Positions 1 to 64,000 of a stretch of DNA of 64,000 nucleotides are shown here, one piece after another. The stretch comes from an uncultured bacterium (GTDB lineage Bacteria > Acidobacteriota > Thermoanaerobaculia > Multivoradales > JAHZIX01): assembly GCA_965368975.1 (NCBI GenBank), contig CBDUPA010000019.1, forward strand, positions 32,001 to 96,000, written 5' to 3'. A program made the position numbers and the translations under genes. Below the pieces are notes generated by a model. That model was not told where the DNA came from. It searched no databases and saw nothing but the letters and a program-made list of their open reading frames with translations. Position 1 is the stretch's first letter. Each line of letters begins with the position of its first letter.

Positions 1-1825
1 CCAGCGTCAGCACCGGCACTGTGTCCCTGGCGTCGGCAGTGTCCCCGGCCGGTGATCGGTCCGTCAGCAGCACCACCGGCGCGGCCTCGTGCAACACATC
101 GCGTCGACGTGCCGAGGGCCAGCCGGCATCGACGGGAACGAACGCGCCGCCAGTGCGCAGCACGGCTAGGATCGCCAGTGGCAGCTCCAGGCGTCGACCC
201 AGCTCCAGGGCGACGAGCCTCTCTGGCCCGGCACCCCGCTGCCTCAACACGGCCGCCAGGGCAGCGGTTCGACGCTCCAGCTCGCCGAAACTGAGGCAAC
301 GACGGCCGCGCACCACGGCCACGGCATCGGGTCGCCGTGCCGCCTGGGCCTGGAAAAGGGCAGAGACCGAGGTGAAGCCCTGAGGCACTCCAAGCTCCAC
401 CTGAGTCGACGGCCAGCCACCCCACTCGTGCAGCACCTGCTGGCGCTCGGCCGGGCTCCACCACTGCAAGCTCCACAGATCACCCTCGGGAGACGCCAGC
501 AGCTCGCTCAGGAGCCGTGGCAGCGCCGCCGCCAGGCGCTGGGCGGTGCTGGCATCGTAGAGACCGGCATCGTAGGTCAAGGCTCCCGCCAGCTCTTCGT
601 CCACTGTGCCCGGTGCCTCGACCAGCACCCAGCTGAGATCGAAGCGTGCCGCCGCAGGCCCGCTGTCGACAGGGGTCCAGCGAGTCTCGCCCGGCTGCTC
701 GCCGAGTTGCAATTGGGCACGCGGCTGATTCTGCACATTCAGCATCACCTGGAAGAGCGGCGGTCGATCCAGGTCACGCTCGGTTTCCAGCCTCTCGACC
801 AGCTGCTCGAAGGGCACGTCTTGGTGCGCGAACGCCTCCAGGCTGCGCTCCCGGGATTGTGCCAGCAGCTGCACGAAGCTCGTACCTACCGGCAGCACGC
901 CGCGCAGCACCAGGGTGTTGATGAAGAAACCGATCAAGCCTTCCAGCTCGCTGCGACCGCGGCCCGCCACGGCAGTACCGACGGTGAGATCGTGCTGATC
1001 CGCCAGGCGTGCCAGCAGCGTTTGCAAAGCAGCCAACAAGCCCATAAAGACCGTACCGCCGCGCTCGCGCACGAAGGCACGCAGCGCGGCCGTGGTGGTC
1101 GCGGGAATGGTCAACGGCACGCTGCCACCCCGACTGGTATCCCGCTTGGCACGCTGACCGCTTCGCGGCCGGTCGGTCGGTAGTTGCAATGACTGCAGGC
1201 CGGCCAGGCGCTGTTGCCAGACCGCCAGGTGCTGCTCGAGCTGTGCGCCGCCGAGGTGGCGGTCCTGCCAGGCCGCGAAGTCGGCGTACTGCACCGGCAG
1301 CGGTGCCAGGACGGCTTGACGTTCGGATGTCGCAGCCTGGTACAGCGCGCCCAGTTCGCGCACCAGGATACCCATCGACCAACCGTCGGTGACGATGTGG
1401 TGCAGCGTCAGAACCGCCACGTGGTCGTCCGTCTGCAGCCTCAGAAGACGCAGACGCAGCAGCGGTCCCACGGCCAGGTCGAAAGGACGCGCACGCTCAC
1501 GCGCCACCAGGTCGCTCACCAGGGTTTGACGCACATCGTCGGCGATTCGCGTCACGTCGACCAGGGTCGGGGCCAATGAGTCAGCCAGCGAGCCAGCTTG
1601 CTCGGTGGCGGACTGCACCACCTGCACCGGCTCTCCCTCGGCACTCTGCGTGAAGACTGTGCGCAGACTCTCGTGCCGCACCACCAGGGCCTGTAGCGCG
1701 GACGCCAGGGCCGCCAGGACCAGCGGTCCTTCCAAGCGCAGAGCGGCGGCGATGTGGTAGGCAGGCGAGCCCGGCAGCAGACGGTCGAGCAACCACAGAC
1801 GACGTTGCGCGATCGAGGCCGGCAC
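1..1825 (-). other. Module 16 (partial): LCL-type C domain plus the N-terminal part of an A domain
   Basis: [27 protein letters not shown] (~1375-1410), LSFGELER and AFVPVDAGWP. The specificity region lies outside the window. Confidence 0.85.
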
Positions 1826-4800
1826 CGGCGCCAGCAGCCTTCCCGCGCGGTCGCGAGGCAAGGGCTCGATCGCAGGCAGCGCCGCCGTGGTGTTTTGCTG
1901 CGCGGACAGCCAGCGGCTCAGGCGTGCCGGGGTCGGGTGTTCGAATAGCACCGGCAGCGGCACCTCGACGCCGAGCACGGTGCGCAGCCTGGCAACCGCC
2001 CGCATGGCCAGCAGCGAGTGACCACCGAGTTCGAAGAAATCACCGTCTGCGGCCACCGGCATTTGCAGCTCTAGCACGTGTGCCCAGGCGTCGGCGACCA
2101 GCTCCTCGAGCGGCGAGCGTTCGCCGGCTGGCATTGCTCGTTCGGAGCCTCCCTCCTCAGCCAACGACGGGCCAGCCAGCGATAGGGCCGCCAGCGCTTG
2201 CCGGTCCACCTTGCCGCTGACGTTCACCGGCAGCGCCTCCAGGACCGAGATGTGCGACGGCACCAGGTGCGCCGGCAGCTCTTCCCTCAGAGCTTCGCGC
2301 AGCGCCGAGCCCAGACCCGAGCCCAGACCCGAGTTCAGCCCACCTCCATCAGTCTGGTCGCTTTCCACCCAGGCCACTAGCTGTGCCGCCTCGCCTTGCC
2401 CGCGCAGCTGCGCCACCGCGCGCCGGGCCTGCGGCTGGCGTTCGAGAGCCGCTTCGACTTCTCCGAGTTCGACCCGGAAACCGCGCACCTTCACCTGCAT
2501 GTCGAGACGGCCGAGGAAGTCCAGGCTGCCGTCGGCACGCCAGCGCACCAGGTCTCCGGTGCGGTACTCGCGCGCGCCGTCGCCACCACGTGCGGCCGGC
2601 ACGAAGGCGGCAGCGGTCAAGGCGGGCTGTCCGCGGTAGCCACGAGTCACCTGTGGACCGCTCACCCGCAGCTCACCGGCCACGCCAACGGGTACCGAGG
2701 CCCCCGTACGGTCAACAACCTCCAGGCCGACACCATCCAGGGGATAGCCGATCGGCAACACGTCGCCGCCCCGGTAATGCCAAACACTAGCGCAGATGGT
2801 CGTCTCGGTGGGACCGTAGCCGTTGATCAACCGCCGCCCGACAGCCCAGACTGCAGCCACCGACGGCGGGCAGGCCTCGCCGGCCGTGATCACCGTGCGC
2901 AGCGCCGGCCAGCTCGCGGCTCGCGGTGCCAGCGCCGCCAGCAAGGACGGCGGCAGAATCGCTGCACTGATCTGCTGCCGCGCCAGCAAGGCCTCGAGAC
3001 CGGACGCACCACCGCTGGGCAGCAGCTGCTCGCGCGGCGCCAGTACCAGGGTCGCACCGGTGGTCAGAGTCATCGCCACCTCGGCCGCCGCGGCGTCGAA
3101 CGACAGGGCGGCGAATTGCAGCACCCGATCCGCAGGTTGCAGGTCGAAAGCGGCCCGCATCGCGACCGCCAGGCGGCCATAGCCGCGGTGCGGCACCACG
3201 ACGCCCTTGGGCCGTCCGGTCGAACCGGAGGTGTAGATCAGGTACGCGGGATTCGCCAGATCCAGTTCCACCGACGTTACTGCAGGCTCTGCAGTTCCAT
3301 CTTCGAGCCAGGCAGAGAGGGTTCGCGCGGGCGCCTCCGCCTCGACCTGGGACGCAACGCCGTGGCGGTCGGTCAGCACCAGCTCCGCTCCCGCGTCGCG
3401 CACCATCAGAGCCAGTCGGGAACCCGGATAGGCGCGGTCCAGCGGAAGGTAGGCGGCGCCCGCCTGCAGCACGCCGAACAACGCCAGCATCAGCTCCGTG
3501 GAACGTTCGAAGCACAGGCCCACCACGCTCTCTGGCCCTATTCCCTCGCGCGTCAGGCGATCCGCCAGGACGCGGCCTCGCCGCACCAGCTCACCGTAGC
3601 TCAGGTGCTGCCTGCCAGCCGCCACGGCCACCGCTTCCGGATGCCGCGCGGCAACGACCGCCACCTGCGCATGTACCGGCGGCGGGTCTACCACCTCACT
3701 GGCCAGCCTCGTCTCGGTCATCAACCGAGCCTGACCGCTCCACTCCCAGAGCAGCTGATGGTGCTCGGCGGAGCCCAGCCACGGCACACCGTGCAGAGCC
3801 GTCCCAGGCTGCTCCACCAGCCGCGCCAACCAGTGCTCGAAGCGCCGTACCAGACGCTGCGCGGAGGTGGCGTCGTAGAGGTCGGCGTTGTAGCTCAGGG
3901 CACCGTTGAGCACCGGCTCGCCGCTCTCATCCACCGTCTCGCCGAAGGTCCAGGCGAGCTCGAAACGTGCCGGCGGCACCCCGGTACCCAACCACTCCAA
4001 CTGCACCTCGTCCTCCAGCTGCAGCTGCGATCGCGGCACGTTCTGCAGCGCCAGCATGACCTGGAACAGCGGTGAGCGGCTCGGATCCCGGGCCGGCTCC
4101 AGCTCCTCCACCAGTCGCTCGAAGGGCACAGCCTGGTGAGCAAAGGCTTCCAGCGTGCGCTGCCGGGCCTGGGTCAGCATGTCAGCAAACGTCGCACCCG
4201 GTGGCAGCTCGGCGCGCAACACCAGCGTGTTGACGAAAAAGCCGATCAGGCCCTCGACTTCCTGCCGATCGCGGCCGGCCACCGGCGTGCCGACGGTGAG
4301 ATCGTCCTGATCCGCCAGCCGCGCCAGCAGCATCTGCAGAGCGGCCAGCAACGCCATGAAGAGCGTCACGCCGTGCTCTCGGCAGACCCTGTGCAGCGCC
4401 GCCAGCACCGGTGACGGGACGCTCAGCGCCTGCAGTCCACCGCGCTGCGTCGCGACGCTGGGCCGCGGCCGATCGGTCGGCAGCTGTAGCGGCCTGACCT
4501 CGGCCATCCCCGCTTGACCTAACCGTTGGCGCCAGAAGTCGAGATGCCGCTGCATGCCGTCACCGCTCAACCAGCGGTGCTGCCAGGCGGCGAAGTCCGC
4601 GTACTGCAAGGGCAGAGGCGGCAGCTCGCGCTGGGCATAGAAGTCGCTCAACTCGCGCACCAGGATGCCGGTGGACCAGCCGTCGGTGACGATGTGGTGC
4701 AGAGTCAGCACTGCCGCCAGGCTGTGCGCGGCCAGCGGCAGCAGCAGAACACGCAGCAAGGGGCCGCGGTGTAACTCGAAGGGCCGTGCCGCCTCGGTCT

Positions 4801-25800: not shown

Positions 25801-27090
25801 TCTCCGCCTGCTGCAGCACGAACAACACCTGGAACAAGGGCGATTGGTCCAGGCGGCGCTCGGGGCGCAGTTCCTCGACCAGCTTCTCAAACGGCAAGTC
25901 GCCGTGTGCCTGGGCATCGACCATCGCCTGGCGCGTACGCGCCAGCAGCGTCCCGAAGCCGGGCTGGGCCGCGGCACTGTCTTCACCGGCACCGTCTTCA
26001 CCGGCACCGTCTTCATTGGCACCGTCTTCATTGGCACCCAGATCGAGGCGCAGTACCAGGGTGTTGACGAAACAGCCGATCAGATTCTCGATCTCTTCGC
26101 GGCTGCGTCCGGCCACGGGTGTACCGATGGCGACGTCACGACTGCCGCACAGCCGGCCGAGCAGCACCAGGACGGCACCGGCGAAGGTCATGAAGTCGGT
26201 CGCCCCGCTCGCCTTGCCGAAGGCCAGAAGCGGGCCGGTGACCGTCGCCGGCAACAATCTCTCGACGCGACCGCCAGCGTCACCGCGACGAGCGCTGCCC
26301 TCGCGTGGATGGTCGACCGGCAGCGCCAGGGGTTCCAGGCCGTCGAGGCGCTGGCGCCAGTAGTCCAGCTGCGCGGCCAGGCGCTCGCCACTCAACCAGC
26401 GACGCTGCCACACCGCATAGTCAGCGTACTGCACCCCCAGCTTGGGCAGCACCTGGCGCGCCTGCTGGCGGTCGGCATAGAAAGCGACCAGCTCACGCAC
26501 CAGCAACTCCATCGACCAGCCATCGCTGACGATGTGATGCTGGGTCAGAAAGAGCGCCGTGCGTGTCCTCTCGGTGGTGTGCTCAGCTGGCGGCAAGCGC
26601 ACCAGGGCGGCGCGTAGAAGGGGGCCTGTCTCGAGATCAAAAGGGCGCAGCGCCTCGCGTGCCGCCAACTCGCGCGCGCAGTGCTGGGCCCGTGCCGCGG
26701 GCAAGTTGCGCAGGTCGACCACCGGCAGCGACCAGCGCGGCGGTGCCTCGCCGACACGCTGGCGTGGCTCGCCCGCCACCTCCACGAAGGTCGTGCGCAG
26801 CGCCTCGTGACGGCGCACCACGGCGAGGAACGCCGCCGCCAGGCGAGCGCTGTCGAGCTGGCCGTCGAGAATCACCGCGGTCGCGACGTTGTAGAGCGGA
26901 TTGCCCGGTAGCAGGCGATCCAGGAACCACAAACGCTGCTGAGCGAACGCCAGGGGCTCTCCCTGCGGATCCGGCTCCCGCGGCAACACGACGTTCTGCT
27001 CGAGGTCCACCCCCTGCCGTCGCAACATCCCCTCGAGCAGGCGCCGCCGCTCCGGCGACAGGCCCGCGATCGTCTTGGCCAGATCGGTCA

Positions 27091-27091: not shown

Positions 27092-34131
<7,040 letters not shown>

Positions 34132-34196
34132 CTCTCAGCGCCTCGTCCTAGGAAATTCATCGAAACGGTCCACTCCTCACAACGCCGTGGACACGA

Positions 34197-34242
34197 GATC
34201 ATTCCGTCACTTCACTCTTGATCATTCCGTCTCTTCGCTCTT
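34197..34242. repeat. 23-bp tandem duplication spanning the stop codon of gene A
   Basis: gatcattccgtcacttcactctt / gatcattccgtctcttcgctctt (2 mismatches). Confidence 0.9.
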
Positions 34243-58200: not shown

Positions 58201-61200
58201 GCGCCACAACTCGCGGTAGCTCACGTGCCGGGAACCGGCGACCAGGGCCACGGCCTCCGGCACGCGTCCAGCACTGGCGGCGACCAGCGAGGCGAGAGTC
58301 TCGCTAGCAAGAATGTCGCCGGTAGCCTTCCGCAGCGAGGCGGGGCCGTGCCACTCCTGGGCGAGCTGATGGCACTCGGCCGGGCTGAGCAGCTCGAGCC
58401 GTCGCAGGCGTTGTTGCGGCTCGGCCGCGAAGCCGGCAAGCAGCTGTCGATAGTGACCGAGCAGGCGCCGGATCGTCGTCGCGTCGACAAGGGCCGGCCG
58501 GTACTCGGCATCGAGACGCAGCGTACGAACACCGGCACCGTCCCGCAGCGGCGTGACGCTCAGACTGAGGTCGTACTTGGCGCCTCCAGCCGCGACCGAC
58601 AGCGGTCTCACTTCGACGCCCGGCAAGCCCACCGGAGCCGCCGACGGTGCCTCGGTGTTCTGCAGCACCAGCAGGGTTTGGATCAGGGGCTCGCGGTCGA
58701 GTCGACGTTCCGGCTGCAACGCCGCCACCAGCTGACTGAAGGGCAGATCCTGGTGGGCGTAGGCTTCGAGCGTCACGGCGCGCACGCGCTCTAGCACCTC
58801 GGCGACCGTCGGTCCGCCGGACGTCGTCGAGCCACCGAGATCGAGGCGCAGAGGCAAGGTGTTGACGAACACACCGAGCAGCGGTTCCAGCTGCTGCTGC
58901 GTGCGTCCCGCCACCGGCGTGCCGACGGCCAGGTCGGTCGCGGGATCGCCAGCGCCGCCGTGGCGGCTGAGCAGTTCGCCGAAGGCAGCCAGCAGCACCA
59001 TGAAGACCGTCAAGCCAGAACCAGTCAAGCCCGACGAGCGTGTCAGCTCTTCGATGGCAGCGGTCTCGGCCGGCGTCAGCGTCTCCAACAAGCGAGCACC
59101 ACGCGCCGCCTCAGCCGTGTCGACCGTCGACCGTGGACGATCGACCGGCAGTTCGACCGGCGGCGGCGGCGGATCCAGCCGGCGGCGCCAGACGCGCAAC
59201 AAGTCTTGCAGCCGTTCGCCCTGGAGCTGGCGGCGCTGAGCGACGGCGAAGTCGGCGTACTGCAGAGGCAGGGGTGGGATGGAGGCCGCTTCGTCGCCAT
59301 AGAAGGCACCGACCTCAAGCCACAGGCGATGCCACGACCAGCCGTCGGCGACGGTGTGGTGCAGCTCGATCAACAAGCGGTGCTTCGGCTCAGAGAGGTG
59401 CTTTGTGGCGGAGTCAGGAGCCGAGGGCAAGCGCAGCAACACAGTGCGCAGCAAGGGACCGCGCGAGAGATCGAAGCGACGCCCGGCCGCGCGGGCCAGC
59501 AGCTGGTCCGCGAGTGTGCCCACTGCGATAGCCGCCACTTCGGAACTGCTCCCCGCCAGCGCCCCTAGGTCGACGACAGGCAGCGCGGTACTCGCGCGCA
59601 CGATCGGCGACGAGGCGGGCAGGATCTCCTGGTAGGGACGCCCGTCCAGTTCGGGCAAGCGCGTGCGCAGCACTTCGTGCCGCTCGACGACCCGCCGCAA
59701 CGCCGCGCGCAAGCGCGCCACGTCCAGACGGCCGCGCAGCTCCAGGGCCGCCGGCAAGTTGTACGCGGTGCCACTGTCTTCCAGGCGCTCCAGGAACCAC
59801 AGGCGCTCCTGGGCAAAGCTCAGGGGCGGATGCTGGGGTCGCGGCGGTAGCAGGTCCAGATCGAGGTCGACCGCATCGAGAGGGATGACTCGATCGGCCT
59901 CGGCTGCGGCCGACAAGCCAGGGTCCCGCGCCTCGAGCAAGCCCGCCAGGGCGTGGGGCGTCGACGCCGTGAACAGCTCAGGCAACGACAGCTCGGCCCC
60001 GATTTCGTCGCGCAGCAGCGACAGGAAGCGGGTGGCGAGCAGGGAGTCGCCGCCCAGCTCGAAGAAGTCATCCTGCGCACCGACCTCGGGCACGCCCAGC
60101 AAACGGCCGAGCAGCGCGGCGATGCGGCCGGCGACAGTATCGTCGATGTCCGAGGGCGCAACGGCCGACGAAGCGACCTCCACCTCCGCGTCGACTCGCA
60201 GGGGCATTGAAGGGGCCGAATGGGGCTGGGCGGGGCCCGTCTCGCCAGCCCACAGCGGTGCTATGCCGTCCAGCTCGACCCAATGACGCTGCCGCTGGAA
60301 GGCGGTTCCCGGCAGGTGCCGGCGCCGCGGTGTCTGGGTCGCCGAGCCGTCGAAACGCTGCCAATCGACATCGGCGCCCGCCAACCACAGACGTCCCAGC
60401 GCCTCCAGTGCACGGGCTCGATCGTCCTCCTGGGCCTCGGCAGCATCGCTTTGCCGGCGCATCGACGCAATGGCGGTCACCGGCTTTCGGCTCGGGACAT
60501 CACTCTTGGGTTGCAGGCCATCCTGTCGCAGCGTCTGGCGCGCCAGGCTGCCGAGGGTGCGGCCCGGTCCGACTTCCAGTAGCACCAGGTCCTCGAGTTG
60601 ACTCAGGCACTCGACGCCGTCGGCGAAGCGTACGGACCGGCGCAGGTGACGGGCCCAGTAGTCCGGATCCTGGGTCTGCTCGGCGGTCACCCAGTCGCCG
60701 GTCAGGTTGGAGATGTACGGCAGGGTGGGTGGACGCAGCTCGACGCGGCCGACCGCTTCGGCGAAGGCAGCGCAAATCGGCTCCATCATCGCCGAGTGGA
60801 AGGCGTGGTCGGTCGGCAGGCGGCGGCAGCTGATGCCGTCCGCTTCGAGCCGCGCCTGCATCGCTTCGACCGCCGCGACCGGCCCGGTCAGCACGCACAC
60901 GGACGGTGCATTCACGGCCGCGACTTCGACCCGCTCGCCTGGGTTACCAGCTTCGTCCTGGGACGCTTGCAGGTAGCGCGCTTCGATGTCGCTGCCGGCA
61001 GCCGCCACGCTGACCATGGCACCACCGTCCAGCGGCTCCATCAATTCTCCACGCAGCGCCATCAGGTCGAGCGCGTCGCGCAAGCTCAGCACGCCGGCCA
61101 GCGTCGCAGCCGCGTACTCGCCGACGCTATGGCCGAGCAGCGCTACCGGTTCGATCCCCCAGTGCTGCCACAGTCGCGCCAGTGCCACCTCGACCAGCAG

Positions 61201-64000
61201 CAACGCTGGCTGCGCCCAGCGCGTGCGCCGCAGCTGTGCCGCGGCCTCGCTGTCGTCGGCGGGCGCGTGCAGCAGGGTGCGCAGATCAAGCCCCAGGCGC
61301 GAGCGCAGGTGCTCGGCTCCCTCGTCGATCCAGCGCCGGTACTCGGGCTCGGTCTCGTACAGGGCCGCGCCCATGCTGGGGAACTGGCTCCCCTGCCCCG
61401 GCAGCAGGAAGGCGACGCGCGGCCGGGCACTGCCGGCGGTGATCGCGCGCAGGTGTGCAGGCACGTCGCGGCTGCGCAGCGCGCGCATGGCTCCGGCCAC
61501 ATCGCGGCACACCACCAGGCGACGTGTCGGCCAGCGTGGACGGCCGCTGCGCAGCGTATGCGCCACATCCGCCAGATCGGGGGCGGCCAGATCGGGGGCG
61601 ATGCGCTCGGAGACGACCTGCTCGTCCAGCCAGGTCGCCAAGTCCTCGCAAGTGGTGTGCAGGGCCGCCGGTGTGTGCGCCGATAACAGCAGCAGGTGCC
61701 AGGCGTCCCCGGCGGCGCTCTCGGCGGGTGGCTTCGGCTCGTCGGCGACAGCTCCGGCGATCGCGGAAGGTGCCTGCTGCAGCACGACGTGCGCGTTGGT
61801 GCCGCCGAGCCCGAAGGCACTGACACCCGCACGGCGCGGCAGCTCGGAGGACGGCCAGGACTCGGCCTGGCCGCTGACGTAGAAAGGCCCCTCCTCGAAG
61901 GGAGCCGCCGGATTGGCCGTCTCGAAGCCGGCGGTCGGCGGTACGACGCCATGACGCAGCGCCAGCACCGTCTTGATCAGGCCAGCGATCCCCGCCGCCG
62001 CGCCCAGGTGACCGATGCTCGCCTTGACGGCACCCAGGGGTCGCCGGTCGTCGACCTCGGCGAACGCCCGGTTGAGCGCCGACACTTCGATCGGATCGCC
62101 CAGCTGCGTGCCCGTGCCGTGCGCCTCGACATAGCCGATCGTGGCCGCCTCGACCGCAGCGTCGGCGTGCGCGGCCGCGATCACGCGGGCTTGGGCCTCG
62201 ATGCTCGGGGCGGTGAAGCCGGCTTTGTGCTTGCCGTCGTTGTTGACCGCCGAGCCCAGCACGAGGGCATGAATCGGGTCCCCCGAGGCCAAGGCATCAT
62301 CGAGCCGACGCAAGGCCACCAAGCCAGCACCACTACCCCAGACGGTGCCGTCGGCCGCCGCATCGAAGGCTCGGCAGCGACCACTCAGCGCATCGATGCC
62401 GCCTTCTTCGTACAGATAGCCCGTGACCTGCGGCACCTTGATCGACACACCACCGGCCAGGGCCAGGTCGCAGTCACCCGCGCGCAGTGCACGGCACGCC
62501 AGGTGCACCGCCACCAGGGCGGTGGAACACGCCGTCTGGACGCTGACGGCGGGGCCGCTGAGCCCCAGGCGGTAAGCCAGCTGGGTGACGAAGTAATCAC
62601 GGTCCGCGCCCATCGCCAGCTGGTAGGCGCCCACCTCGCGCAGCAGGTTGGGATCGCGTTGCAGGTAGTGCAAGAAGTAGGTGGAGAGCGTGCCACCGGC
62701 GAAAACGCCGATCGAGCCGGCAAAGCGTTCGGGATCGACCGCAGCATCGTCGAGAGCGAGACGCGCGGTCTCGAGCAACAACCGCACCTGCGGATCGAGC
62801 AGCTGAGCCTGACGCGGCGTCAGCCCGAAGTGCTCGGCGTCGAAGTCCTCGACACCGTCGAGCACGCCCCGACCGCGCACCAACTTCGGATGCGTCACCA
62901 GCTCGGCAGGCAGGCCCGCCGCCAGCAACTCTTCGTCGGTGAAGCGGCGCACCGCCTCGCGACCGTCGAGCAGCTGCCGCCAGAAGGCGTCGACATCGGG
63001 CGCACCCGGGAACCGGCCCGCCATGCCGACGATGGCGATCGGTACGGCACTCTCGCCAACACCGGCACTGGCACTGGCACTGGCACCGGCCGGCCGAGAC
63101 GCTTGCAGCACCTGGGCTCGGACCGCCGGCTCCGACGTCTCCAGCAGGCGTGCCAGGTAGCGAGCCTGCCCGCGCACCGTCGGATGCGCGAACAGCTCGA
63201 CCAGCGGCAGCTCACGGCCCGCCAGCTGCTGCAAGCGCGCGTGCAGACGCACCAGCAGCAGCGAGTGACCGCCGAGGTCGAAGAAACTGGCTTCCGGGTC
63301 GACCGCTGGCACTTCGAGCAACTCGGCCCACAACGCCTCGATGTCGCGCTCCAGCCGTTCTTCCGGCGTCGAGCCGGGCAGCAGCGGCGCGGCGGCCAGT
63401 TCGGCTCCAGAAACGGCTCCAGGCACTACCTGTGCCGACGAAGCCAGTACCGACGAAGCCAGTACCGACGAAGCCAGTGCCGACGAAGCCAGCGCCGGCA
63501 GACGCTGGGCCAGGGCGCGGCGATCGACCTTGGCGTTGGCGGTCAGCGGTAGTCGATCGAGGACCTCGAAGGCCGCGGGCACCATGTAGGCCGGCAGACG
63601 CTGCAGCAACGCGGCGCGTACCGCTCCGGGGTCGATCCCGCCCGTGGCAACGGCCCCCGCCGATCCCGCCTGGGGCACAAGGAACGCGACCAGGCGACTG
63701 GCCACTCCCAGCTGCGGTCCCCTCAGCCCAGTACTACTGCTCGGGCCCTGCGCCAGCACCACCGCCTCGCGCACCTCTGGCAGGGCCACTAGGACCGCTT
63801 CGATCTCCGCCGGTTCGACGCGGAACCCGCGAATCTTGATCTGCTTGTCCCGGCGACCGGCGAACGCGACTTCGCCATTGGGTAGATAGCGGCCGAGATC
63901 GCCGGATCGATAGAGGCGAATCTGCGACTGGGTGCGGGCAGCGTCAGGATGGACTACATCCGGTGTGAACGCCAGAGCCGTGGCGCGGGGATCGTCCAGG
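34222..64000 (-). CDS. Giant hybrid NRPS-PKS (gene A), 5'-truncated by the window edge; more than 9900 aa
   Basis: The ORF track gives 34222..63789, but the frame stays open to the edge (LDDPRATALAFTPD...RLYRSGDLGRYLPNGEVAFAGRRDKQIKIRGFRVEPAEIE), so it begins in the middle of an A domain. It contains T, KS-AT-ACP and six NRPS modules with three E domains. Confidence 0.96.
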   Translation of the reverse strand, partial: LDDPRATALAFTPDVVHPDAARTQSQIRLYRSGDLGRYLPNGEVAFAGRRDKQIKIRGFRVEPAEIEAVLVALPEVREAVVLAQGPSSSTGLRGPQLGVASRLVAFLVPQAGSAGAVATGGIDPGAVRAALLQRLPAYMVPAAFEVLDRLPLTANAKVDRRALAQRLPALASSALASSVLASSVLASSAQVVPGAVSGAELAAAPLLPGSTPEERLERDIEALWAELLEVPAVDPEASFFDLGGHSLLLVRLHARLQQLAGRELPLVELFAHPTVRGQARYLARLLETSEPAVRAQVLQASRPAGASASASAGVGESAVPIAIVGMAGRFPGAPDVDAFWRQLLDGREAVRRFTDEELLAAGLPAELVTHPKLVRGRGVLDGVEDFDAEHFGLTPRQAQLLDPQVRLLLETARLALDDAAVDPERFAGSIGVFAGGTLSTYFLHYLQRDPNLLREVGAYQLAMGADRDYFVTQLAYRLGLSGPAVSVQTACSTALVAVHLACRALRAGDCDLALAGGVSIKVPQVTGYLYEEGGIDALSGRCRAFDAAADGTVWGSGAGLVALRRLDDALASGDPIHALVLGSAVNNDGKHKAGFTAPSIEAQARVIAAAHADAAVEAATIGYVEAHGTGTQLGDPIEVSALNRAFAEVDDRRPLGAVKASIGHLGAAAGIAGLIKTVLALRHGVVPPTAGFETANPAAPFEEGPFYVSGQAESWPSSELPRRAGVSAFGLGGTNAHVVLQQAPSAIAGAVADEPKPPAESAAGDAWHLLLLSAHTPAALHTTCEDLATWLDEQVVSERIAPDLAAPDLADVAHTLRSGRPRWPTRRLVVCRDVAGAMRALRSRDVPAHLRAITAGSARPRVAFLLPGQGSQFPSMGAALYETEPEYRRWIDEGAEHLRSRLGLDLRTLLHAPADDSEAAAQLRRTRWAQPALLLVEVALARLWQHWGIEPVALLGHSVGEYAAATLAGVLSLRDALDLMALRGELMEPLDGGAMVSVAAAGSDIEARYLQASQDEAGNPGERVEVAAVNAPSVCVLTGPVAAVEAMQARLEADGISCRRLPTDHAFHSAMMEPICAAFAEAVGRVELRPPTLPYISNLTGDWVTAEQTQDPDYWARHLRRSVRFADGVECLSQLEDLVLLEVGPGRTLGSLARQTLRQDGLQPKSDVPSRKPVTAIASMRRQSDAAEAQEDDRARALEALGRLWLAGADVDWQRFDGSATQTPRRRHLPGTAFQRQRHWVELDGIAPLWAGETGPAQPHSAPSMPLRVDAEVEVASSAVAPSDIDDTVAGRIAALLGRLLGVPEVGAQDDFFELGGDSLLATRFLSLLRDEIGAELSLPELFTASTPHALAGLLEARDPGLSAAAEADRVIPLDAVDLDLDLLPPRPQHPPLSFAQERLWFLERLEDSGTAYNLPAALELRGRLDVARLRAALRRVVERHEVLRTRLPELDGRPYQEILPASSPIVRASTALPVVDLGALAGSSSEVAAIAVGTLADQLLARAAGRRFDLSRGPLLRTVLLRLPSAPDSATKHLSEPKHRLLIELHHTVADGWSWHRLWLEVGAFYGDEAASIPPLPLQYADFAVAQRRQLQGERLQDLLRVWRRRLDPPPPPVELPVDRPRSTVDTAEAARGARLLETLTPAETAAIEELTRSSGLTGSGLTVFMVLLAAFGELLSRHGGAGDPATDLAVGTPVAGRTQQQLEPLLGVFVNTLPLRLDLGGSTTSGGPTVAEVLERVRAVTLEAYAHQDLPFSQLVAALQPERRLDREPLIQTLLVLQNTEAPSAAPVGLPGVEVRPLSVAAGGAKYDLSLSVTPLRDGAGVRTLRLDAEYRPALVDATTIRRLLGHYRQLLAGFAAEPQQRLRRLELLSPAECHQLAQEWHGPASLRKATGDILASETLASLVAASAGRVPEAVALVAGSRHVSYRELWRRAGRIATGVADRIAPAEALTGSEAEPRVGVALPRTPLLVESLLGVLRAGAAYVPLDPAYPAERTVFMLQDSGAALLLISDGGESSSGVEVVDPALLVEVSLAEVSLAEEEQRTGASLADSLDNFPDHSRPERLAYVIYTSGSTGKPKGVAIEHRRAVARMRWAGQTFTAAQLAGTLAATSVCFDLSVFELFTPLVHGGSVVLAANALQLPHLRAAARVSLVNTVPSALTALVALEQDGEAALPPALAAVNLAGEPLPPTLAGQLLQLRPRVELRNLYGPSEDTTYSTGTRLKSTPDGVRVTLGLPLPGTTAAVLDRHARVQPVGVAGDLHLSGGGLARGYLGRPALTAERFLPAVPVLATALAAGLATGLAAGRPCRHESDRDGAALRIGGSRMYRTGDLVRRLADGRLDYLGRLDHQVKLRGFRIELGEIESLLAGHPEVRRAVTVVHAGTRLVAYVEPAAERGDSVANSPDEDGLRRRLLAHLGTRLPVYMVPSRIEMLETLPQLPNGKVDRSQLARRSLPMEGTAMEGTAMDGAAQDTALERTAEASATLGSTGARLAEVWQQVLGLETLPGADAHFFELGGDSILSIQVVSQARKAGLTLTPRQLFEHPTLGALAALLQQSGVEQGSGGVAVAESGPAFATTPSSDRLLEGPVPLTPIQHWFLRPGVRDPHHFNQAWWLRDAGDPPLDPALLRRVLRQLPERHDALRLRFDQRPGKDGGTWQQRYASRAEARQLDSLVHVDLERLAPAARESEARRLGEALQGRFDLARGPLLRVLLLTYGTAPAELLWCAHHLVVDGVTWRLLLSDVAAGYAALASAAGSEFGAAARSSASFRDWAQAQVRLAHDSRTLDGALCWLEPWLGSRPSTILPTAVEAAEPQRTASLDVEFDRELTTRLLGPVSSRLRMKVDEVLLAVLARAWPDRAESTALWLDLERHGRDLPGVECSDVAGWFTALFPVLLPLDEAPEAAADLRSVRRQLRALPEGGIPFGIVRYLGPPHASKALANLPPRHLVFNYLGQAGGAGLTGSGRAGSGQSGSGEAGRWQPLDRPVRSLRSPRQPRPHAYEINGAVIEGRLCLRWTYPDGAEAGASMPARAERFRQRLAELVQYGDSAQALRLWPEDVPLAGFADNPAETAQLLSLQERAGGAIEDLYPLAPMQRGMIFHSLQAPTDGAYVGQMLLELEPQTDGSFDAAALPLAMAAAWRRLLARQPMLRTGILGLDRSQPLQAVYRQVPLPWSRIELDGLRTDDCAWALDQLLAADRRHGFDLQRPPLLRLLWISRAEEGPALLCSHHHLLLDGWSMALLIRDLAGDLAHYAAGSRARATGEGRRGASTSLAPARPYRDFIAWLAERDLAERDPAAAETFWRTTLDGLRAPTRLAVQRPVEASTAEAGTDDRSETGKQDGGHFARSVHLSAAQAEAVSAAARHAGVTLNTWVQAAWGLVLGRFSGDRDIVFGAVSSGREADLSGIDQMVGLFINTLPVRLSLAPSQRVTSWLHQQQTRQAQVREHEYVALADVQRWSPLPAGEQLFDTLLVFENYPVDRLASQQAGQDLRVRRAHMREQTNYPLTLIAEPAAGADGAAAGLHLKLDAQWQAFEPVAVGALLHQLHWLLGTVLPAAVDSETRLGALPALPPTERQALLFEYQGLPVPHSPDPSLHGPSLHGPVVAQATQRPDAVALLAGRHHLSFAALVCGARAVAGRLRAAGVGLDDRVGLLAERTPRALTGILGVLMAGAAYVPVDPQAPPSRLQQLAADAAFAVVLTDAEHAALAAELGVATVARLEDATSDDAPQDDADEVDAAAVAVEQGLVHPQAAAYVIYTSGTTGAAKGVVISQASAGGFAATFRRQLALTPADRLMLFAPLSFDASVLQTFPALGAGAGLLIPRQPRLLVGRALLGYAARHGLTVLDLPAALWRAWVDDTAAHGLPLPRRLRLCLTGGESVPHAHLRTWAGLAPWPMDFLSSYGPTETTVTATAIEARNLDVLRRSAGAAPASQGNLRLGHPLAGVRLYLLATGAEALGQQPVPRGVAGELVLGGPGVARGYLGRPAQTATVFVPDGIEAFVPDGVEASVAGGRLYRTGDLARRDFRGELEFLGRADRQIKLRGFRLEPAEIEAVLRQHPAVREAAVVLRKDHPGERLLTAYVTPAGSADPAADDLRQLAAAHLPDYAVPAAFVVLDTVPLLASGKLDMKALPAPQLSSAALGGVGSAAGATRTVGRPPAGDLERRLAEIWIQVLGLQAAGAELDLEAFDAEADFFALGGDSILTIQLVARAQQAGVQLDARDVFAHPSVARLAAHLQASPERARPEAEQGPVSGPTPPTPIQRWWRNLGAPAHFNQALLLQPSRQVSPGHLDRALGRLLRHHDALRLVWRVPAEGASATEDNAGEPLILPPLARAETPYACLDLRGLPAERRPAEAQRLATRAQASFDAARGPLVRLLHVLGVSPREESPIQEYLIWLCHHLVVDAVSWRLLLDDLESLVLERRLPPKTAPWTAWSRHLAELAAAPEAPARAAAWAAYLAAPVLHLPEDVRAARETASPEVDTFGRQASVERRLSTDLTGTLLTDALSVYGGSLADAVLSALLRAWPRHLQAEPLEKPADGPAEGQHRRHPVLLVELEGHGRDVLLDGALDVSRTAGWFTVQTPLVLQPASAGTAKPAEALQKVRTAQDELRRGVAPGPGDATDSHASDGHSSEMGALAGLDGRAEWGVLQGLPTPIPKARPTLGFNYLGRLDAAGGSQLWEPRLDVPAWIGPQVDPELPRPLALELQAAVREGRLEMTLRYAPSRHQRATVELLLDGLTSALEELAAAARDLLVRMTLDGRRPEAIYPVTPMQQGMLFHSLRAPGQGLYVQQLTLRLAPGLDVQAFHRAWHQLLERHAVLRTGFFALDTETPLQAVRAWPSWSDSWSDSLADGGSPLALHPLPLQVVDLSRLPEPVRVAEWQGLADADRRQGFAAGAAPLMRLLLAREFAALTSSQAEGATRYRFLWSHHHALMDGWSLPRLLGEVRALYAGAALAPPPPPFQRYAEYLEGRDATAEERFWRAYLAGFDEPTPLPASGPTSGAVVASGDGRADEGHAFDDRRQPLSHDLVQALEAFARRHRLTLNTLFQGAWARLLAVHAGVTEGASDGGVPDVVFGAVTAGRSAPLPGIEEMVGLFINTLPVRVHFDGRPLVPWLQALQRAQVEQRAYEATPPARLQAWSQVPAGRSLFETLLAFENYPLEADHSASNEPSSLQVEEVAAREQPHYPLSLLVVPGRDQRLELRLLSQRSRFVSTEALRLLGHLLRLLEGLASVGEEDSSRANLPIEALSLLGKSESHQLLIEWNETPNLAEHPGREPAVLHERIAARARRVPERTAVVCGRRWLSFGELDRRATALAARLRRVGAGPDQVVAVCLQRSPELMVALLGVLRAGAAYVPLDPDYPHERLAFMLDDAWANQLGHDDPTSDQGSEQSSDQGGILLVQPHAVPQLQQQAVDRGAAVLRLAPDGGVEMPDSHTDLAAAPDEMQPWTESKPEHLAYVIYTSGSTGKPKGAMNSHRAICNRLAWMQQQYQLNAGTPGTGGDAGDVVLQKTPASFDVSVWEFFWPLLEGVRLVLAKPGGHKDPAYLTWLIRRQAITTLHFVPSLLQVFVDQPDLPACRSLRRVVTSGEALSGPLARRLLQRLPLPLLSDAGLPGAGLHNLYGPTEAAVDVTYHCCTPDELAAGVPIGRPVTNTRILLLDRQGESVPIGVGGELHIGGVQLARGYWRRPAKTAEVFVPARGGEGESLDRGARLYRTGDLARYKPDGEIDFLGRIDHQVKIRGLRIELGEIEAALDEHPRVRDAVVVAHRTGGSAGSARLVAYVVLDASDTRGEDSWQEDLRAHLRSRLPDYMVPALWLRLDALPLLPNGKVDRRALPAPDGGLSREIAYEAPVEETEIRLAAVFARVLGLERVGRHDNFFSLGGDSILSLRVGAQAAEQGLEIGFGDLFTHSTVAQLATVSRVMGAEQAEGAAPDQEAWAGPFELLTNADRQRLQDRETELEDAYPVSALQLGMLYFTEHASPDTAAEPSAEPGAVYHNVSALHLRGDVNPGTLQRALEAVTDRHPALRTSFDLDRFDEPLQLVARRAPVRFSVCDLSALAPEDRERQRARRFEAEQRARFDVRRPPLLRVWLLPYGDGSFVFGWSEHHAIIDGWSIASWLTEVFSEVQRLLGTASRDATPPAPPYRHFVQLERQMLANREPSREAWDFWSRQLAGAEMLRLPRAGTLADQPPGVDVIEVPMPDTAALEALARAIGVTLKSVLLAVHLHVLEQLSGSRDVMTGLVSNGRPEGADSERTMGLFLNTLPLRLRLPSARHGGSWRQLIRSVYDAEVAMLPYRRLPLAELQRRLADGSALFEVAFNYIHFHVLASADNLAERLETLAVHTFAETDFTLMVQTGRNAGDGRPTLELQYRRERLHPAQVRQWAGWYRRTLEALVAASAEPDLPRHARSLLSRAEHHQLRYAWNDTRVTWPADGSRYLHRRVAATVERLPDVVALVAGLQHVSYAELWRRACHLAARLQALGAGPDRRVALCLERSAELSIALLGTLLSGSAYLPLDPEHPPTRLAEIVGDAEPVAIVTVAALRARVDALRPLLPQPAPPCLELDVSSPAGARSPDAVARIPADAGADQLVPADAGADQLVPADAGADQLAYVIYTSGSTGKPKGAMISHRSIDNRLRWMQTAYELGPGDVVLQKTPVTFDVSVWELFWPLLEGARLVLARPGGHRDPAYLAALIRRAGISVLHFVPSMLQLYVDAAPEEATQRPWGPRLVVTSGEALPVSLAERTLAQLDPRRGARLENLYGPTEAAVDVTRWTCRPSATTLPIGRPIANTRIHLLDASLRPVAALVPGQLWIAGVNVGRGYLRRPALTAAAFRPDPFPEDGTGGARAYATGDLARHRGDGAIDFLGRIDFQVKVRGLRIELGEIEDVLRRLPEVADAVVVAQRTAGGDSRLIAYLTASSTQDPSDLRQRLADTLPDYMIPAAFVQLDALPLNTSGKVDRKALPAPDSDLLAAGTGGADAGGPPRDELETRLAALFSELLEVPVSGRDADFFALGGHSLLATRLLGRLRRDMASESGVGAEVSLRLGDIFRAGTVAALAQRLREAGSVSEEASGRTSVGPPLRRISRDQVLPASFAQQRFWVLDRLLAPLPDGPLEARQVQAGQPEGALDGRAAYNVVFASRLESTSEDEAGSKGAVLNRALLHGALLNRAVRAVVARHEVLHSHLDADEEGRLRQVIAPAATGVSVPCLDLHHLAPSRRSAEARRLAQLAGARPFDLRRAPLHRWLLVRQEPATHTLLLVLHHAVTDGWSVGLLVREVVEEYQRQHSRQLGGQVAQPAASAPAEESLQYADYAAWQRAWFDAGGAAAQLDWWRQQLRGLEPLDLPSDRPRPAQQSFTGGRLALPLPASLTQSLEAFAGSRGSTLFMTLLAGFQLLLGRLAARADVAVGTPVAGRPRPELETLQGCFVNTLVLRSDLAAADGFGQLVTRVRDETLAAQERQDLPFEQLVAALQPRRDRSRTPLFQVLFVLQNVPPVHLSLPGLAVRPLEVETAQARFDLSLTVEPAGAGTYRAIADWSLALFDATTVRRWMAAWQRLLAAGVAQPQVPLADLPWLSVAQEQQVLREWNETPALLPAELPPAHPPVPVSEPAVLDARIGARAGQWPQAIAVQCGQHWLSYDELLSRAETLAECLREQGAGPESVIAVCMPRSLELVVALLGILRSGAAYVPLDPDYPSERLTFMLGDAWSAAANEDRGLLVTAPGLAPAVESAAVTAGGVIVELHGDGSLHVPTASTSQTASTSLADRRPENLAYVIYTSGSTGKPKGAMNSHRAICNRLHWMQQQYGLAAGDVVLQKTPASFDVSVWEFFWPLLEGVRLVLAKPAGHKDPGYLARLIVRQAVTTLHFVPSMLQVFVEEPGLQLCTSLRRVVASGEALPAALARRLLERRPGAGLYNLYGPTEAAVDVTHHPCRLDETGSSAAIGRPVANTRILLLDRRGAPVPIGVAGELHIGGVQLARGYLGRPARTASSFVPDGTHQGNRVPEGTHKQYRGRLYRTGDLARTLADGEIEFLGRLDHQVKIRGLRIELGEIEAALATLAPVGDVTVRDIVVTAWRPAQAADSPARLVAYVATDAPPASESEWVADLRAQLGTRLPDYMVPALWVRLPELPLLPNGKVDRKALPAPGVQASEVQGEAAPSNDRESALATIWQEVLGAGPFGIHDDFFAQGGDSILALQVVARARSAGLGLTPAQLFEHPTIAAQAAAAVGLDEVELVHSASAAGPVPPTPIQAWFLDHLRQGGQELHLERPEHPGHHFNQALLLQPAQPLAAPELFTVLRVLFERHDALRLRLEVLDGAVDGAWRPVLASAQRASHLASSAGAVVDLGRMPEPAAVEQLTTCLQRSFDLTRGPLLRAVLIRLGGREQRLWLGAHHLVVDGVSWRILLQDLATVLTAVRAGRDPLAAVAGVGTSFRAWSEWLQSFDAAEPLAAVASYWRRLHKRLPPPLPLAQSGDAPTENGIRADEASVSVELDGATTRDLLQRAGAAYRMRVDEILLTALTLACAEWSGEDRLWLDLEGHGRDAEALTSLRADEAAAPDLSRTVGWLTSLYPVLLDLGAARGPAGEAGLDLGAALKAIKEQLRTLPAGGLAFGLVRERLASMAPSLPPSVRQPEVLFNYLGQLHRGGGVAAEGEAPWRAAAESAGPDASPRLRRSHALMVDAQVVAGAAEGPEQQPMQQPRLQLRLRYDRRRGAQDVLERVAASFAEHLHGLVAHCLQPDAGGYTPSDFPLAVLRATELDELVTVVGGRLEDLYPATPMQQGMLFHSLRAPRSGVYVQQLVLRFGGEGAAGSTLDERALYSAWGRLLERHPALRTAFWLQFDEPLQVVLPAEAVALPWTVSDWSDLPPVDQRRALDRLLVADRLRAFRLPAAPLFRLALLRLGAGERALIWSYHHALLDGWSTPILLRELFEFYRAARQRQRVEIAPPAGRFRDFVAWLQPRLASGEAEEFWRSRLADIAAPTPLPADRPAREGSTGGSQHEHRSFLTPQLSEDLEARARQLRITTNSLLQGAWALLLAQTLWGQRGARGGSTGGDSETEVVFGAITAGRSAPLPGLQETVGLFINILPVRRQVSPSAKTADWLRALHEELAALRRFEYSPLAQLQAWSGVPPGQPLFDSILVYENFPVGASASAAGGGLGLRGVEMAEQTNYPLTLVAAPGDRLSLRLLYDPERFDATTALRLLGQLQRLLEGLSGPDVSAEQLGDLPRLSPAERQLLVVERNDTRLELAPERRLLPAAWLAQAARTPDALALTVGSHTERQLSYGQLRARAEDLAYQLRALGAGPDVPVAFCLPRSTGLLVSMLGVLLAGATCVPLDPEVPPERLEFQLQDSGARLLVLNTEGNSSLRSRFAALPHLQVVELDTLDRVTAAVPVPETGRQQGGRKALLPPPELHPDHLFYVIYTSGSTGRPKGVQLSHRAMSNLVAWDQAAWHTGDRPRVFGFSPVGFDACYNETFLAWVTGGTLCFLDDAARRDVPKVTDYLERQRVDKALVPVVLLQQLAEEAAEGRWPASSLSALITAGEQQHVTPLVRRLFEQRPELVLGNYYGPSESHVVTARYFRRGPGQPESQREPEQWPARPPIGVPLPNTQIQILGSDLYPVALGTTGELWIGGDCLARGYLARAALTADRFRPHPLAGRVAAAGARLYRSGDLARWRVDGEIEYLDRADFQVKIRGFRVEPGEVQAVLESHPDVRQAAVVAAADPTLAATGGQRLLAYVVPVGDTEADVAAAGTSLVDISSELRMFLLQRLPSYMVPSAFVRLAELPVNANGKLDRRALPQPDGTATGTLFVAPRTAVEAVLCGIWRRVLGVERVGVDDDFFDLGGHSLLATRIVSRVRRTFRVEFPLPAFFELARPTVGELAKAVIAHESRPGQAEVIARALQRVSRKSEETE
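34310..37665 (-). other. Module 6: C(DCL)-A(Pro clade, code DANLIAYVVK)-T
   Basis: DLYPATPMQQGMLFH, WSYHHALLDGWS; FDACYNE / ALVPVV / LITAGEQ / NYYGPSESHVVT; [10 protein letters not shown]. Confidence 0.8.
37730..42700 (-). other. Module 5: C(LCL)-A(Ser, code DVWHVSLVDK)-T-E (D-Ser)
   Basis: LHHAVTDGWS; LQKTPASFDVSVWEFFWPL, HFVPSML, NLYGPTEAAVDV; GGDSIL. E domain motifs: PTPIQAWF, HHLVVDGVSW, EGHGRD, FNYLGQ. Confidence 0.88.
42790..46110 (-). other. Module 4: C(modAA/dehydrating type)-A(Ser, code DVWHVSLVDK)-T
   Basis: EDAYPVSALQLGML, VYHNV, RHPALRTSFDLDRFDEPLQLV, SEHHAIIDGWSIASWLTE, FEVAFNYIHFHV; Ser A-domain motifs; GGHSLL. Confidence 0.8.
44150..44235. repeat. 30-bp tandem repeat x~2.8, in frame (PADAGADQLV)
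   Basis: (t/c)gccccggcatccgccggcacgagttggtc is repeated just before the A3 motif of module 4. Confidence 0.95.
46230..49700 (-). other. Module 3: C(DCL)-A(Ser, code DVWHVSLVDK)-T(GGDSI), no E domain
   Basis: AIYPVTPMQQGMLFH, WSHHHALMDGWS; Ser A-domain motifs; NFFSLGGDSILS. Confidence 0.88.
49760..54745 (-). other. Module 2: C(DCL)-A(unassigned, code DALDLGSVTK)-T-E
   Basis: DLYPLAPMQRGMIFH, SHHHLLLDGWS; FDASVLQ / VLDLPA / CLTGGE / SSYGPTETTVT; GGDSIL. E domain motifs: HHLVVDAVSW, EGHGRD, RTAGWFT, FNYLGR. Confidence 0.82.
54850..59830 (-). other. Module 1: C-A(Ala, code DLFNNALTYK)-T-E (D-Ala)
   Basis: LHHTVADGWS; FDLSVFE / VNTVPS / VNLAGE / NLYGPSEDTTYS; GGDSIL. E domain motifs: LTPIQHWF, HHLVVDGVTW, ERHGRD, FNYLGQ. 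Confidence 0.85.
59940..63045 (-). other. cis-AT PKS module KS-AT(malonyl)-ACP without KR/DH/ER
   Basis: KS: IAIVGMAGRFPGA, QTACST, EAHGTGT, SIGHL (intact Cys-His-His). AT: PGQGSQ, GHSVGE, HAFHS. ACP: FFELGGDSL. About 50 aa separate the post-AT linker from the ACP, with no NADPH-binding motif. Confidence 0.92.
63150..64000 (-). other. Module 0 (partial): C-terminal part of an A domain plus the T domain feeding the KS
   Basis: [48 protein letters not shown]. Confidence 0.9.
63436..63495. repeat. 15-bp tandem repeat x4, in frame (LASSV/LASSA) in the A-T linker
   Basis: cgacgaagccagtac x2, cgacgaagccagtgc, cgacgaagccagcgc. Confidence 0.95.

Follow-up and report, generated by a model that had tools for sequence, protein, structure and literature searches.

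A large fatty-acid-primed line of peptide synthetase and polyketide synthase modules predicted from three collinear genes of an uncultured member of the Acidobacteriota

A stretch of 64,000 nucleotides from an uncultured bacterium (GenBank assembly GCA_965368975.1, contig CBDUPA010000019.1, hereafter C19), referred to here as the window, was analysed for the modular non-ribosomal peptide synthetase (NRPS) and polyketide synthase (PKS) genes that it carries. The window corresponds to C19:32001-96000 in a 7.13 Mb genome of 59 contigs and has a G+C content of 68.5-71.6% throughout. We consider it likely that three co-directional genes encode a single collinear NRPS-PKS line primed with a fatty acid, and that the window covers its central 64 kb. 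The system is a very large line, real and intact, with a lipopeptide as its predicted product, and every part of it is of a known kind. On the sequence comparisons made here it is an orphan line, with no close or characterised relative in the genomes and libraries searched.

Organisation of the three synthetase genes

The listing of open reading frames (ORFs) and the translation of the window reveal three long, collinear minus-strand frames with no internal stop. Positions here and below are those of the window unless prefixed with a contig name.

34222..63999, minus strand: gene 1 (G3), in-window part of 9,925 aa with an open 5' end, residues 3334-13258 of 13,258 aa
27091..34131, minus strand: gene 2 (G4), complete, 2,346 aa, modules 9-10
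2..27091, minus strand: gene 3 (G5), in-window part of 9,030 aa with an open 3' end, residues 1-9030 of 12,943 aa

G3 starts 9,999 nt past the right edge of the window and G5 continues for 3,913 more residues past the left edge. The three co-directional genes are tightly packed, G3 and G4 being spaced by 90 nt and G4 and G5 overlapping by a single base, 27091, which is shared by the stop and the start. On the contig, the full line of 28,547 residues (13,258 in G3, 2,346 in G4 and 12,943 in G5) occupies 85.7 kb and comprises a loader made of a fatty-acid-AMP ligase (FAAL)-like domain and an acyl carrier protein (ACP), 21 NRPS modules and one PKS module.

The domain architecture was derived from a motif map and from Pfam searches with 18 module-sized pieces of the window, in which all the domains scored above the curated cut-offs; the two approaches agree. 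For the full line, 27 pieces of G3-G5 were searched against Pfam and the expected domains were all found above cut-off. With C, A, T and E denoting condensation, adenylation, thiolation (carrier) and epimerisation domains, and KS and AT denoting ketosynthase and acyltransferase domains, the in-window part of G3 reads (C-terminal part of A)-T, KS-AT-ACP, C-A-T-E, C-A-T-E, C-A-T, C*-A-T, C-A-T-E and C-A-T, where C* marks a divergent C domain described below. G4 consists of two C-A-T modules, and the in-window part of G5 reads C-A-T, C-A-T-E, five C-A-T modules and finally C-(N-terminal part of A). The window thus holds 15 full and two cut NRPS modules, one PKS module, four E domains and 17 carrier domains, and the count of modules and E domains given for the three co-linear genes in an earlier note on this DNA is exact by both the motif map and Pfam. 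That note also had both ends of the line running off the window; G3 is indeed open at its 5' end and G5 at its 3' end, and both are completed on the contig. Its estimate of a hybrid NRPS-PKS line of at least 18 modules is borne out by the contents of the full line.

The identity, order and intactness of the domains are read directly from the translations. C-A-T units above the Pfam cut-offs (PF00668, PF00501 and PF00550) were detected in all 15 full modules of the window and in all 21 on the contig. Catalytic motifs are present in each of the 15 A domains (A3, A8 and the A10 Lys) and in all 17 carrier domains (GGxS), and HHxxxDG is retained in 24 of the 26 C-like domains of the line, the exceptions being the starter domain (HHLIADF) and the second E domain (HHLVVDA). 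When the window was compared with itself, the most similar pairs of modules showed about 78-80% DNA identity over at most 718 nt, with 77.6% over 718 nt for the best pair; because the modules are well diverged at the DNA level, an artefact of collapsed repeats is unlikely.

Long ORFs on the plus strand were set aside as antisense to the synthetase frames in DNA of 70% G+C, and an Rfam search over the window at gathering thresholds gave no matches. A query for sequencing runs that contain positions 42000-50000 listed none, and none of RNA. Tandem Repeats Finder reported 22 short arrays in the window (e.g. 25972-26038, 31653-31719, 44148-44235 and 63432-63497). In 21 of these the period is divisible by three (12-30 nt) and the array lies inside the synthetase genes, where it encodes repeated linker or loop stretches of 4-10 residues; the only array of period 23 (34197-34243) straddles the 3' end of G3 and extends into the gap between G3 and G4.

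Condensation and epimerisation domains

All 26 C-like domains of the full line were aligned and fall into four E domains, four DCL-type domains, 16 LCL-type domains, the starter domain and C*. The four E domains cluster apart, with 33-42% mutual identity and at most 27% identity to the other 22 C-like domains, and one of them has solved E domains as its best matches (PvdL, BacC, which is bacitracin synthase 3, TycB, TycA and GrsA). The four DCL-type domains form a cluster of their own (39-48% identity), and each of them directly follows an E domain, as DCL-type domains should. The T domains ahead of the four E domains and of C* carry GGDSI, the other NRPS T domains GGHSL and the ACP of the PKS module GGDSL.

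C* (44722-46104) is set apart, sharing no more than 32% identity with any of the remaining 25 C-like domains. Among solved structures it best matches the N-terminal C domain of McyA (8jbr, 272 bits) and AmbE (7r9x, 179 bits), whereas a control DCL-type domain matches McyB and PvdL and retrieves neither McyA nor AmbE at E<=1e-20. The passages on this subtype in a paper on corallorazine biosynthesis describe the AmbE domain as a characterised CmodAA and give two marks for the subtype, [K/R]SVLLAAH immediately ahead of C5 and an R(R) with which C6 begins (PMC11342130). C* carries KSVLLAVH together with RR at C6, the motif occurring in one of the 36 C-like domains on the contig, and the A domain upstream of it, in module 5, has a Ser-like code. 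C* therefore resembles the McyA and AmbE domains in the subtype motif, in the RR at C6 and in the preceding Ser-type module; it differs in being internal to a line of 21 NRPS modules, and its dehydrating action is predicted from these likenesses. As a family assignment from sequence, a CmodAA-type dehydrating condensation domain is well supported, in agreement with the single modAA-type C domain claimed in the earlier note, and we infer that C* would dehydrate the upstream Ser.

Adenylation domain codes and module content

The ten code positions of each A domain were taken at fixed offsets to the core motifs A4, A5 and A10, which presumably correspond to the positions defined by Stachelhaus et al. 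The codes were read by hand off one alignment and then by script from a second alignment, and the two readings are identical for all 15 in-window A domains. The residue names attached to them below are presumptive, having been assigned by comparison with known specificity codes.

63154..63999, minus strand: cut module 2, C-terminal part of A (63529-63999) and T (63154-63345); code of the full A domain DPRHLVLRAK
54772..59856, minus strand: module 3, C(LCL-type)-A-T-E, DLFNNALTYK (Ala), E at about 54883-56265
49714..54771, minus strand: module 4, C(DCL-type)-A-T-E, DALDLGSVTK (no substrate match), E at about 49864-51246
46114..49716, minus strand: module 5, C(DCL-type)-A-T, DVWHVSLVDK (Ser-like), T with GGDSI
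42724..46116, minus strand: module 6, C*-A-T, DVWHVSLVDK (Ser-like), C* at 44722-46104
37669..42726, minus strand: module 7, C(LCL-type)-A-T-E, DVWHVSLVDK (Ser-like), E at about 37864-39246
34225..37671, minus strand: module 8, C(DCL-type)-A-T, DANLIAYVVK (Pro-like), end of G3
30517-34131, minus strand: module 9, LCL-type C, DIESMGTVVK (no substrate match), G4
27094-30519, minus strand: module 10, LCL-type C, DAWYIGHVTK (Leu/Ile-like), G4
23522..27091, minus strand: module 11, C-A-T, DATKVGHVGK (Asp-like)
18722..23524, minus strand: module 12, C-A-T-E, DLYDLSGIWK (Cys-like), E at about 18839-20221
15317..18724, minus strand: module 13, C(DCL-type)-A-T, DIVQFTLVWK (no substrate match, weakly Gly-like)
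11942..15319, minus strand: module 14, C-A-T, DLTKVGEVGK (Asn)
8552..11944, minus strand: module 15, C-A-T, DAWFLGHVVK (Leu-like)
5117..8554, minus strand: module 16, C-A-T, DAKDLGVVDK (Glu)
1847..5119, minus strand: module 17, C-A-T, DAAIIAGICK (Phe-like or other aromatic)
2..1849, minus strand: cut module 18, C (434-1825) and N-terminal part of A; code of the complete A domain on the contig DAKDLGVVDK (Glu)

The A domain of module 2 finds its best solved match in the second A domain of LgrA (267 bits vs 203 for the next), which we take to load Gly. Some support for the Pro-like call of module 8 comes from motifs common to its A domain and that of module 20, which looks like a canonical Pro domain. 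The A domain of module 4 (51619-53181) has an unusual A3 (TSGTTGAAKG) and an unusual A10 (SGKLDM).

The residue string that the earlier note had derived by collinearity fits all 15 extracted codes, and its figure of eight deviating codes among the 15 readable ones was reproduced in our own comparison with known codes. Its further claim of many non-standard residues is unproven, since in a phylum that has been little sampled a code may deviate without its substrate being unusual. One deviant code, DAWYIGHVTK, is found again in the neighbouring NRPS on the same contig (A domains G1_1072 and G2_688), with the near variant DAWFIGHVTK in G1_3368. Judged from this recurrence, DAWYIGHVTK looks like a lineage-specific spelling of a common specificity.

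The polyketide synthase module

A single PKS module lies between modules 2 and 3 of G3.

59935..63042, minus strand: PKS module KS-AT-ACP, with KS at 61924-63042, AT at 60439-61410 and ACP at 59935-60126

The three domains score far above the Pfam cut-offs (PF00109, PF02801, PF00698 and PF00550). As read in the translation, the KS has its Cys and both His motifs and the AT has GHSVG and HAFH, the latter of which we take to be a malonyl signature. No ketoreductase (KR), dehydratase (DH), enoylreductase (ER) or methyltransferase (MT) domain was matched by Pfam in the PKS module, in which the gap between AT and ACP is only about 105 aa, or in any other piece of G3-G5. In the textbook scheme, such a module extends residue 2 by one malonyl unit and the beta-keto group stays unless a trans enzyme reduces it; the keto group is accordingly predicted to be retained here.

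The line beyond the window

At the N-terminus of G3, an AMP-binding domain with a DIP2-like C-terminal part (PF00501 and PF23024) is followed by an ACP and the starter C domain with HHLIADF. Module 1 carries the code DVWFLGNVVK (Leu-like). T1 and A2 are separated by a tandem of two LCL-type C domains, each of which retains HHIAADG; no A-T intervenes.

C19:97300-100150, minus strand: tandem C-C pair, G3 residues about 1950-2900, outside the window

The myxoglucamide cluster was considered as a model for this arrangement and dropped: its atypical C domains, as described in the relevant passages of PMC13638107, are without the His motif that both tandem C domains of the present line retain. Past the left edge of the window, G5 continues with Glu, Ala, Pro and DIFHFGLILK modules and then ends after a T domain.

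Predicted assembly of the product

In the proposed scheme, the FAAL-like domain would load a fatty acid on the ACP and the starter C domain would join it to residue 1 (Leu-like). After the tandem C pair, the module with the LgrA-like A domain would add residue 2, and KS-AT-ACP would contribute one malonyl unit, a beta-keto group being left in place where no KR is present. The 19 further modules are predicted to contribute D-Ala, D-X, Ser, Ser, D-Ser, a Pro-like residue, X, a Leu/Ile-like residue, an Asp-like residue, a D-Cys-like residue, X, Asn, Leu, Glu, an aromatic residue, Glu, Ala, Pro and X. The CmodAA-type C domain of module 6 would turn the Ser of module 5 into dehydroalanine. The stereochemistry would be set by the four E domains, each epimerising the residue of its own module and each being read by a DCL-type C domain. 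The predicted product is a lipopeptide that contains about 21 residues and, within the chain, a single ketide unit.

Relatives and comparison with known systems

NRPS matches to G4 were present in all 41 genomes searched (the source genome and 40 of the same family or order), the best full-length matches in the 40 relatives showing 45%, 45% and 42% identity, each inside a much longer frame. A pattern scan for the PKS module over 185,579 species genomes, a collection that may leave out records of the window's own genome, identified 12 loci, the best of which reach 44% (Dictyobacter and Verrucomicrobiales metagenome-assembled genomes, MAGs). A library of 5.8 billion proteins was searched with residues 1-520 of G4: of 8,000 candidates scored, the best 120 do not exceed 50% identity, and the 90%-identity cluster of G4 has no other member. 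C* showed at most 46% identity in the protein library, its matches lying among long synthetases. These searches with G4 and C* covered set length ranges and the candidates sharing most words with the query. With the PKS module as query, the best 150 matches of an exhaustive HMMER scan over 1.84 billion representatives all lie at or below 51% identity. A literature search, covering listings and passages of PMC13083261, found no paper on an NRPS product from Thermoanaerobaculia. The earlier note had named a high-identity, syntenic match to a characterised cluster as the observation that would speak against its view of the line as unrecognised; no such match was found in the genome scans and the protein libraries, where the best values were 44-51%.

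Three collinear genes for a long lipopeptide line are also known for syringopeptin, which contains dehydro-amino acids. The corresponding NRPS genes of Pseudomonas syringae, encoding SypA, SypB and SypC, comprise 22 modules and are described as one of the largest prokaryotic NRPS systems, and the passages of PMC3039948 on this system present a line with no PKS module and no E domains that ends in two thioesterase (TE) domains. The present line differs in its putative FAAL-ACP start, its KS-AT-ACP module, its four E domains and its lack of a TE, and no sequence likeness between the two was seen above the generic NRPS level. Among the matches to C* in the protein library, only PuwF-G, of the cyanobacterial puwainaphycin type (39% identity), bears the name of a specific synthetase. 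In puwainaphycin-type lines, which are FAAL-primed NRPS-PKS hybrids producing lipopeptides of about 10 residues that contain dehydrobutyrine (Dhb), the PKS and an aminotransferase come first; the present line is twice as long, and its PKS module follows residue 2. In lines of the nostopeptolide NosB type, a KS-AT-ACP between NRPS modules leaves an internal acetate-derived keto unit in a nine-residue product, the PKS being a separate gene. Our line is from another phylum and has its PKS module fused.

As an in-frame line of 86 kb with a predicted lipo-21-mer containing dehydroalanine, a keto-extended residue and D-residues, the system is a concrete discovery target. It also provides a test case for the transfer of specificity codes to under-sampled phyla, for the role of a tandem C-C pair and for product release by a line with no TE, the absent release domain being the one real puzzle. 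The understanding of how NRPS or PKS work is left unchanged.

Product release and alternative explanations

Several points weigh against reading the three genes as one collinear, fatty-acid-primed line. FAAL models are among the top NCBIfam matches of the loader (458, 420 and 415 bits), all of them below their cut-offs. The tandem C-C pair breaks strict collinearity. The residue names are presumptive, eight of the 15 codes in the window and three of the six outside it having no counterpart among the codes used for comparison. The second E domain (module 4, about 49864-51246) carries HHLVVDA and not HHxxxDG. Finally, no TE, reductase or terminal or extra C domain was matched by Pfam in G3-G5 or in the 20 kb downstream, and because there is no release domain in G3-G5 or the flanks, the line as described cannot release its product unaided.

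Genome-wide, PF00975 gave 17 matches, only one of which is on C19, at the end of G2 in a second NRPS that lies upstream of G3.

C19:111581-148152, minus strand: second NRPS G1-G2, with G1 of 3,846 aa, truncated at the end of the contig, and G2 of 8,344 aa, seven modules and a TE

Taken together, G1-G2 reads as a cut A-T, ten C-A-T modules and the TE, the latter on the strand of G3 and 5.6 kb upstream of it. A TE frame of 295 aa that stands alone on contig C4 and a lone C-A-T-TE gene on contig C7 were also considered, and nothing links either of them to G5. The C-terminal tail of G5 is short and acidic and is without the LSDEE-type helix that ends G1 and G4, which are subunits that hand over to a following subunit. 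It is improbable that cis release is absent because the line works unlike the textbook, by trans transfer to a further synthetase or by off-loading through an enzyme type not yet linked to NRPS release. For off-loading, the first candidates would be two Asp/Glu-racemase-family paralogues directly downstream of G5; trans transfer, if true, would give a non-ribosomal peptide longer than any known bacterial one.

In a related explanation, to which we attach a low probability, the three genes are part of a longer line, the chain passing in trans from the last T domain of G5 to G1-G2 or to an orphan subunit that starts with C, and the peptide would clearly exceed 22 units. Such a transfer would fit the end of G5 in a T domain and a short acidic tail with no release domain, and the position of the only TE on the contig at the close of G2, 5.6 kb upstream of G3 and on the same strand. 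Several synthetase genes of the genome (e.g. on C1, C5 and C25) also start with C and have no adjacent upstream partner. However, contig C29 very probably carries the preceding part of G1-G2, as judged by the fit of the contig ends: over its last 600 nt, C19 is 90.7% identical to an A domain inside the C29 gene, whose frame (6,595 aa; C29:1-19786) breaks off at the A3 motif, and G1 starts mid-A domain. The C29 gene has its own start, with an N-terminal T-C and a stand-alone adenylating enzyme nearby, and G1-G2 is therefore read as a second, separate line; a single mega-line including G1-G2 was judged unlikely on account of the C29 junction and of this start. The missing LSDEE-type docking helix of the G5 tail likewise speaks against a hand-over, and no single partner could be picked out.

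Two further explanations concern the novelty and the reality of the line. That the cluster belongs to an already characterised peptide whose relatives were missed, the searches not having queried MIBiG directly, appears very improbable. Word- or pattern-based searches can miss relatives, but the HMMER scan with the PKS module was exhaustive and stayed at or below 51%, G4 at or below 50%, C* at or below 46% and the 40 relatives at or below 45% over full-length G4; G4 sits alone in its 90%-identity cluster, and the NCBI records, among which a characterised cluster should appear, are part of the libraries. We give equally little credence to the view that the module order is an artefact of short-read metagenome assembly, with repeats collapsed or mis-joined and the collinear peptide fictitious. 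It is true that the genome is in 59 contigs, that many of them end inside NRPS genes and that the right end of C19 breaks inside a repeated A domain. Against this, the in-window module pairs are too diverged to collapse (78-80% for the most similar, over at most 718 nt), the frames run on through 28,547 codons, a DCL-type C domain comes after every E domain, a pattern that random joins would not keep, and the genome has a completeness of 99.3% and a contamination of 0.09%. A single collinear, fatty-acid-primed line encoded by G3-G5 is the reading that we prefer.

Neighbouring genes

The genes flanking the line on C19 include the following.

C19:106044-110389, minus strand: four genes directly upstream of G3, encoding a transketolase C-terminal-type protein, a DegT/DnrJ/EryC1-type aminotransferase and split transketolase N- and C-terminal parts
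C19:18699-20200, minus strand: two tandem Asp/Glu racemase family paralogues directly after the G5 stop, NCBIfam PRK07475 below cut-off
C19:15157-18610: HNH nuclease and HNH-AAA ATPase genes resembling PtuB and PtuA (Septu/retron-type anti-phage effectors), NCBIfam below cut-off

The last of the four upstream genes is only 46 nt from G3; these genes probably belong to the cluster, to which they may provide a building block. Further upstream, a gene of the FGE-sulfatase family on the plus strand faces the end of G2. On the other side, the racemase-like protein that follows G5 had no PDB sequence match at E<=0.01, and the ESM Atlas puts it in the Asp/Glu racemase family. The two paralogues may supply D-Asp or D-Glu for modules with no E domain, or may have another role. 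The PtuA/PtuB-like pair marks the downstream edge of the cluster, and further downstream are genes for an M1 peptidase, a DUF6702 protein and an iron-type alcohol dehydrogenase (Fe-ADH).

The neighbours of the synthetase frame on C29 are two ADOP-type permeases, a stand-alone protein with a leucyl-tRNA synthetase (LeuRS) editing domain, an Fe-ADH, an M24 peptidase, an aldehyde dehydrogenase and the adenylating enzyme.

The host genome

On RpoB sequence, the host groups with Thermoanaerobaculia (Acidobacteriota): many metagenomic proteins share 81-85% identity with the first 500 residues of the protein, and those with a source name are labelled Thermoanaerobaculia or Acidobacteriota. The duplicated permease on C29 matches the ADOP family at 886 bits vs a cut-off of 622.

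About 72 frames of at least 900 aa with NRPS or PKS motifs, totalling 284,616 aa, make up roughly 12% of the genome of 7.1 Mb. NRPS genes are cut by the ends of many contigs, and C25 has one frame of 14,797 aa. Open frames of 18,228, 17,425 and 14,225 aa were observed in three relatives and, if real, would be among the longest bacterial proteins. The passages of two reports on this subject describe the Acidobacteriota, including Thermoanaerobaculia MAGs, as unusually rich in biosynthetic gene clusters (PMC13083261; PMC9723581). The present genome, with about 12% devoted to NRPS and PKS, resembles those reported in this respect; the clusters characterised in these passages are of ribosomally synthesised and post-translationally modified peptides (RiPPs) and not NRPS lines of the present kind.

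At the left end of C19 (C19:222-4890) there are two tandem genes of 768 aa each that encode Ser/Thr-kinase-TPR proteins. The first 600 nt of the contig, including the start of the first kinase gene, recur exactly at C19:2363-2962, and its first 55 nt are an exact reverse match to the start of contig C8, which suggests a link between the two contigs in the assembly graph.

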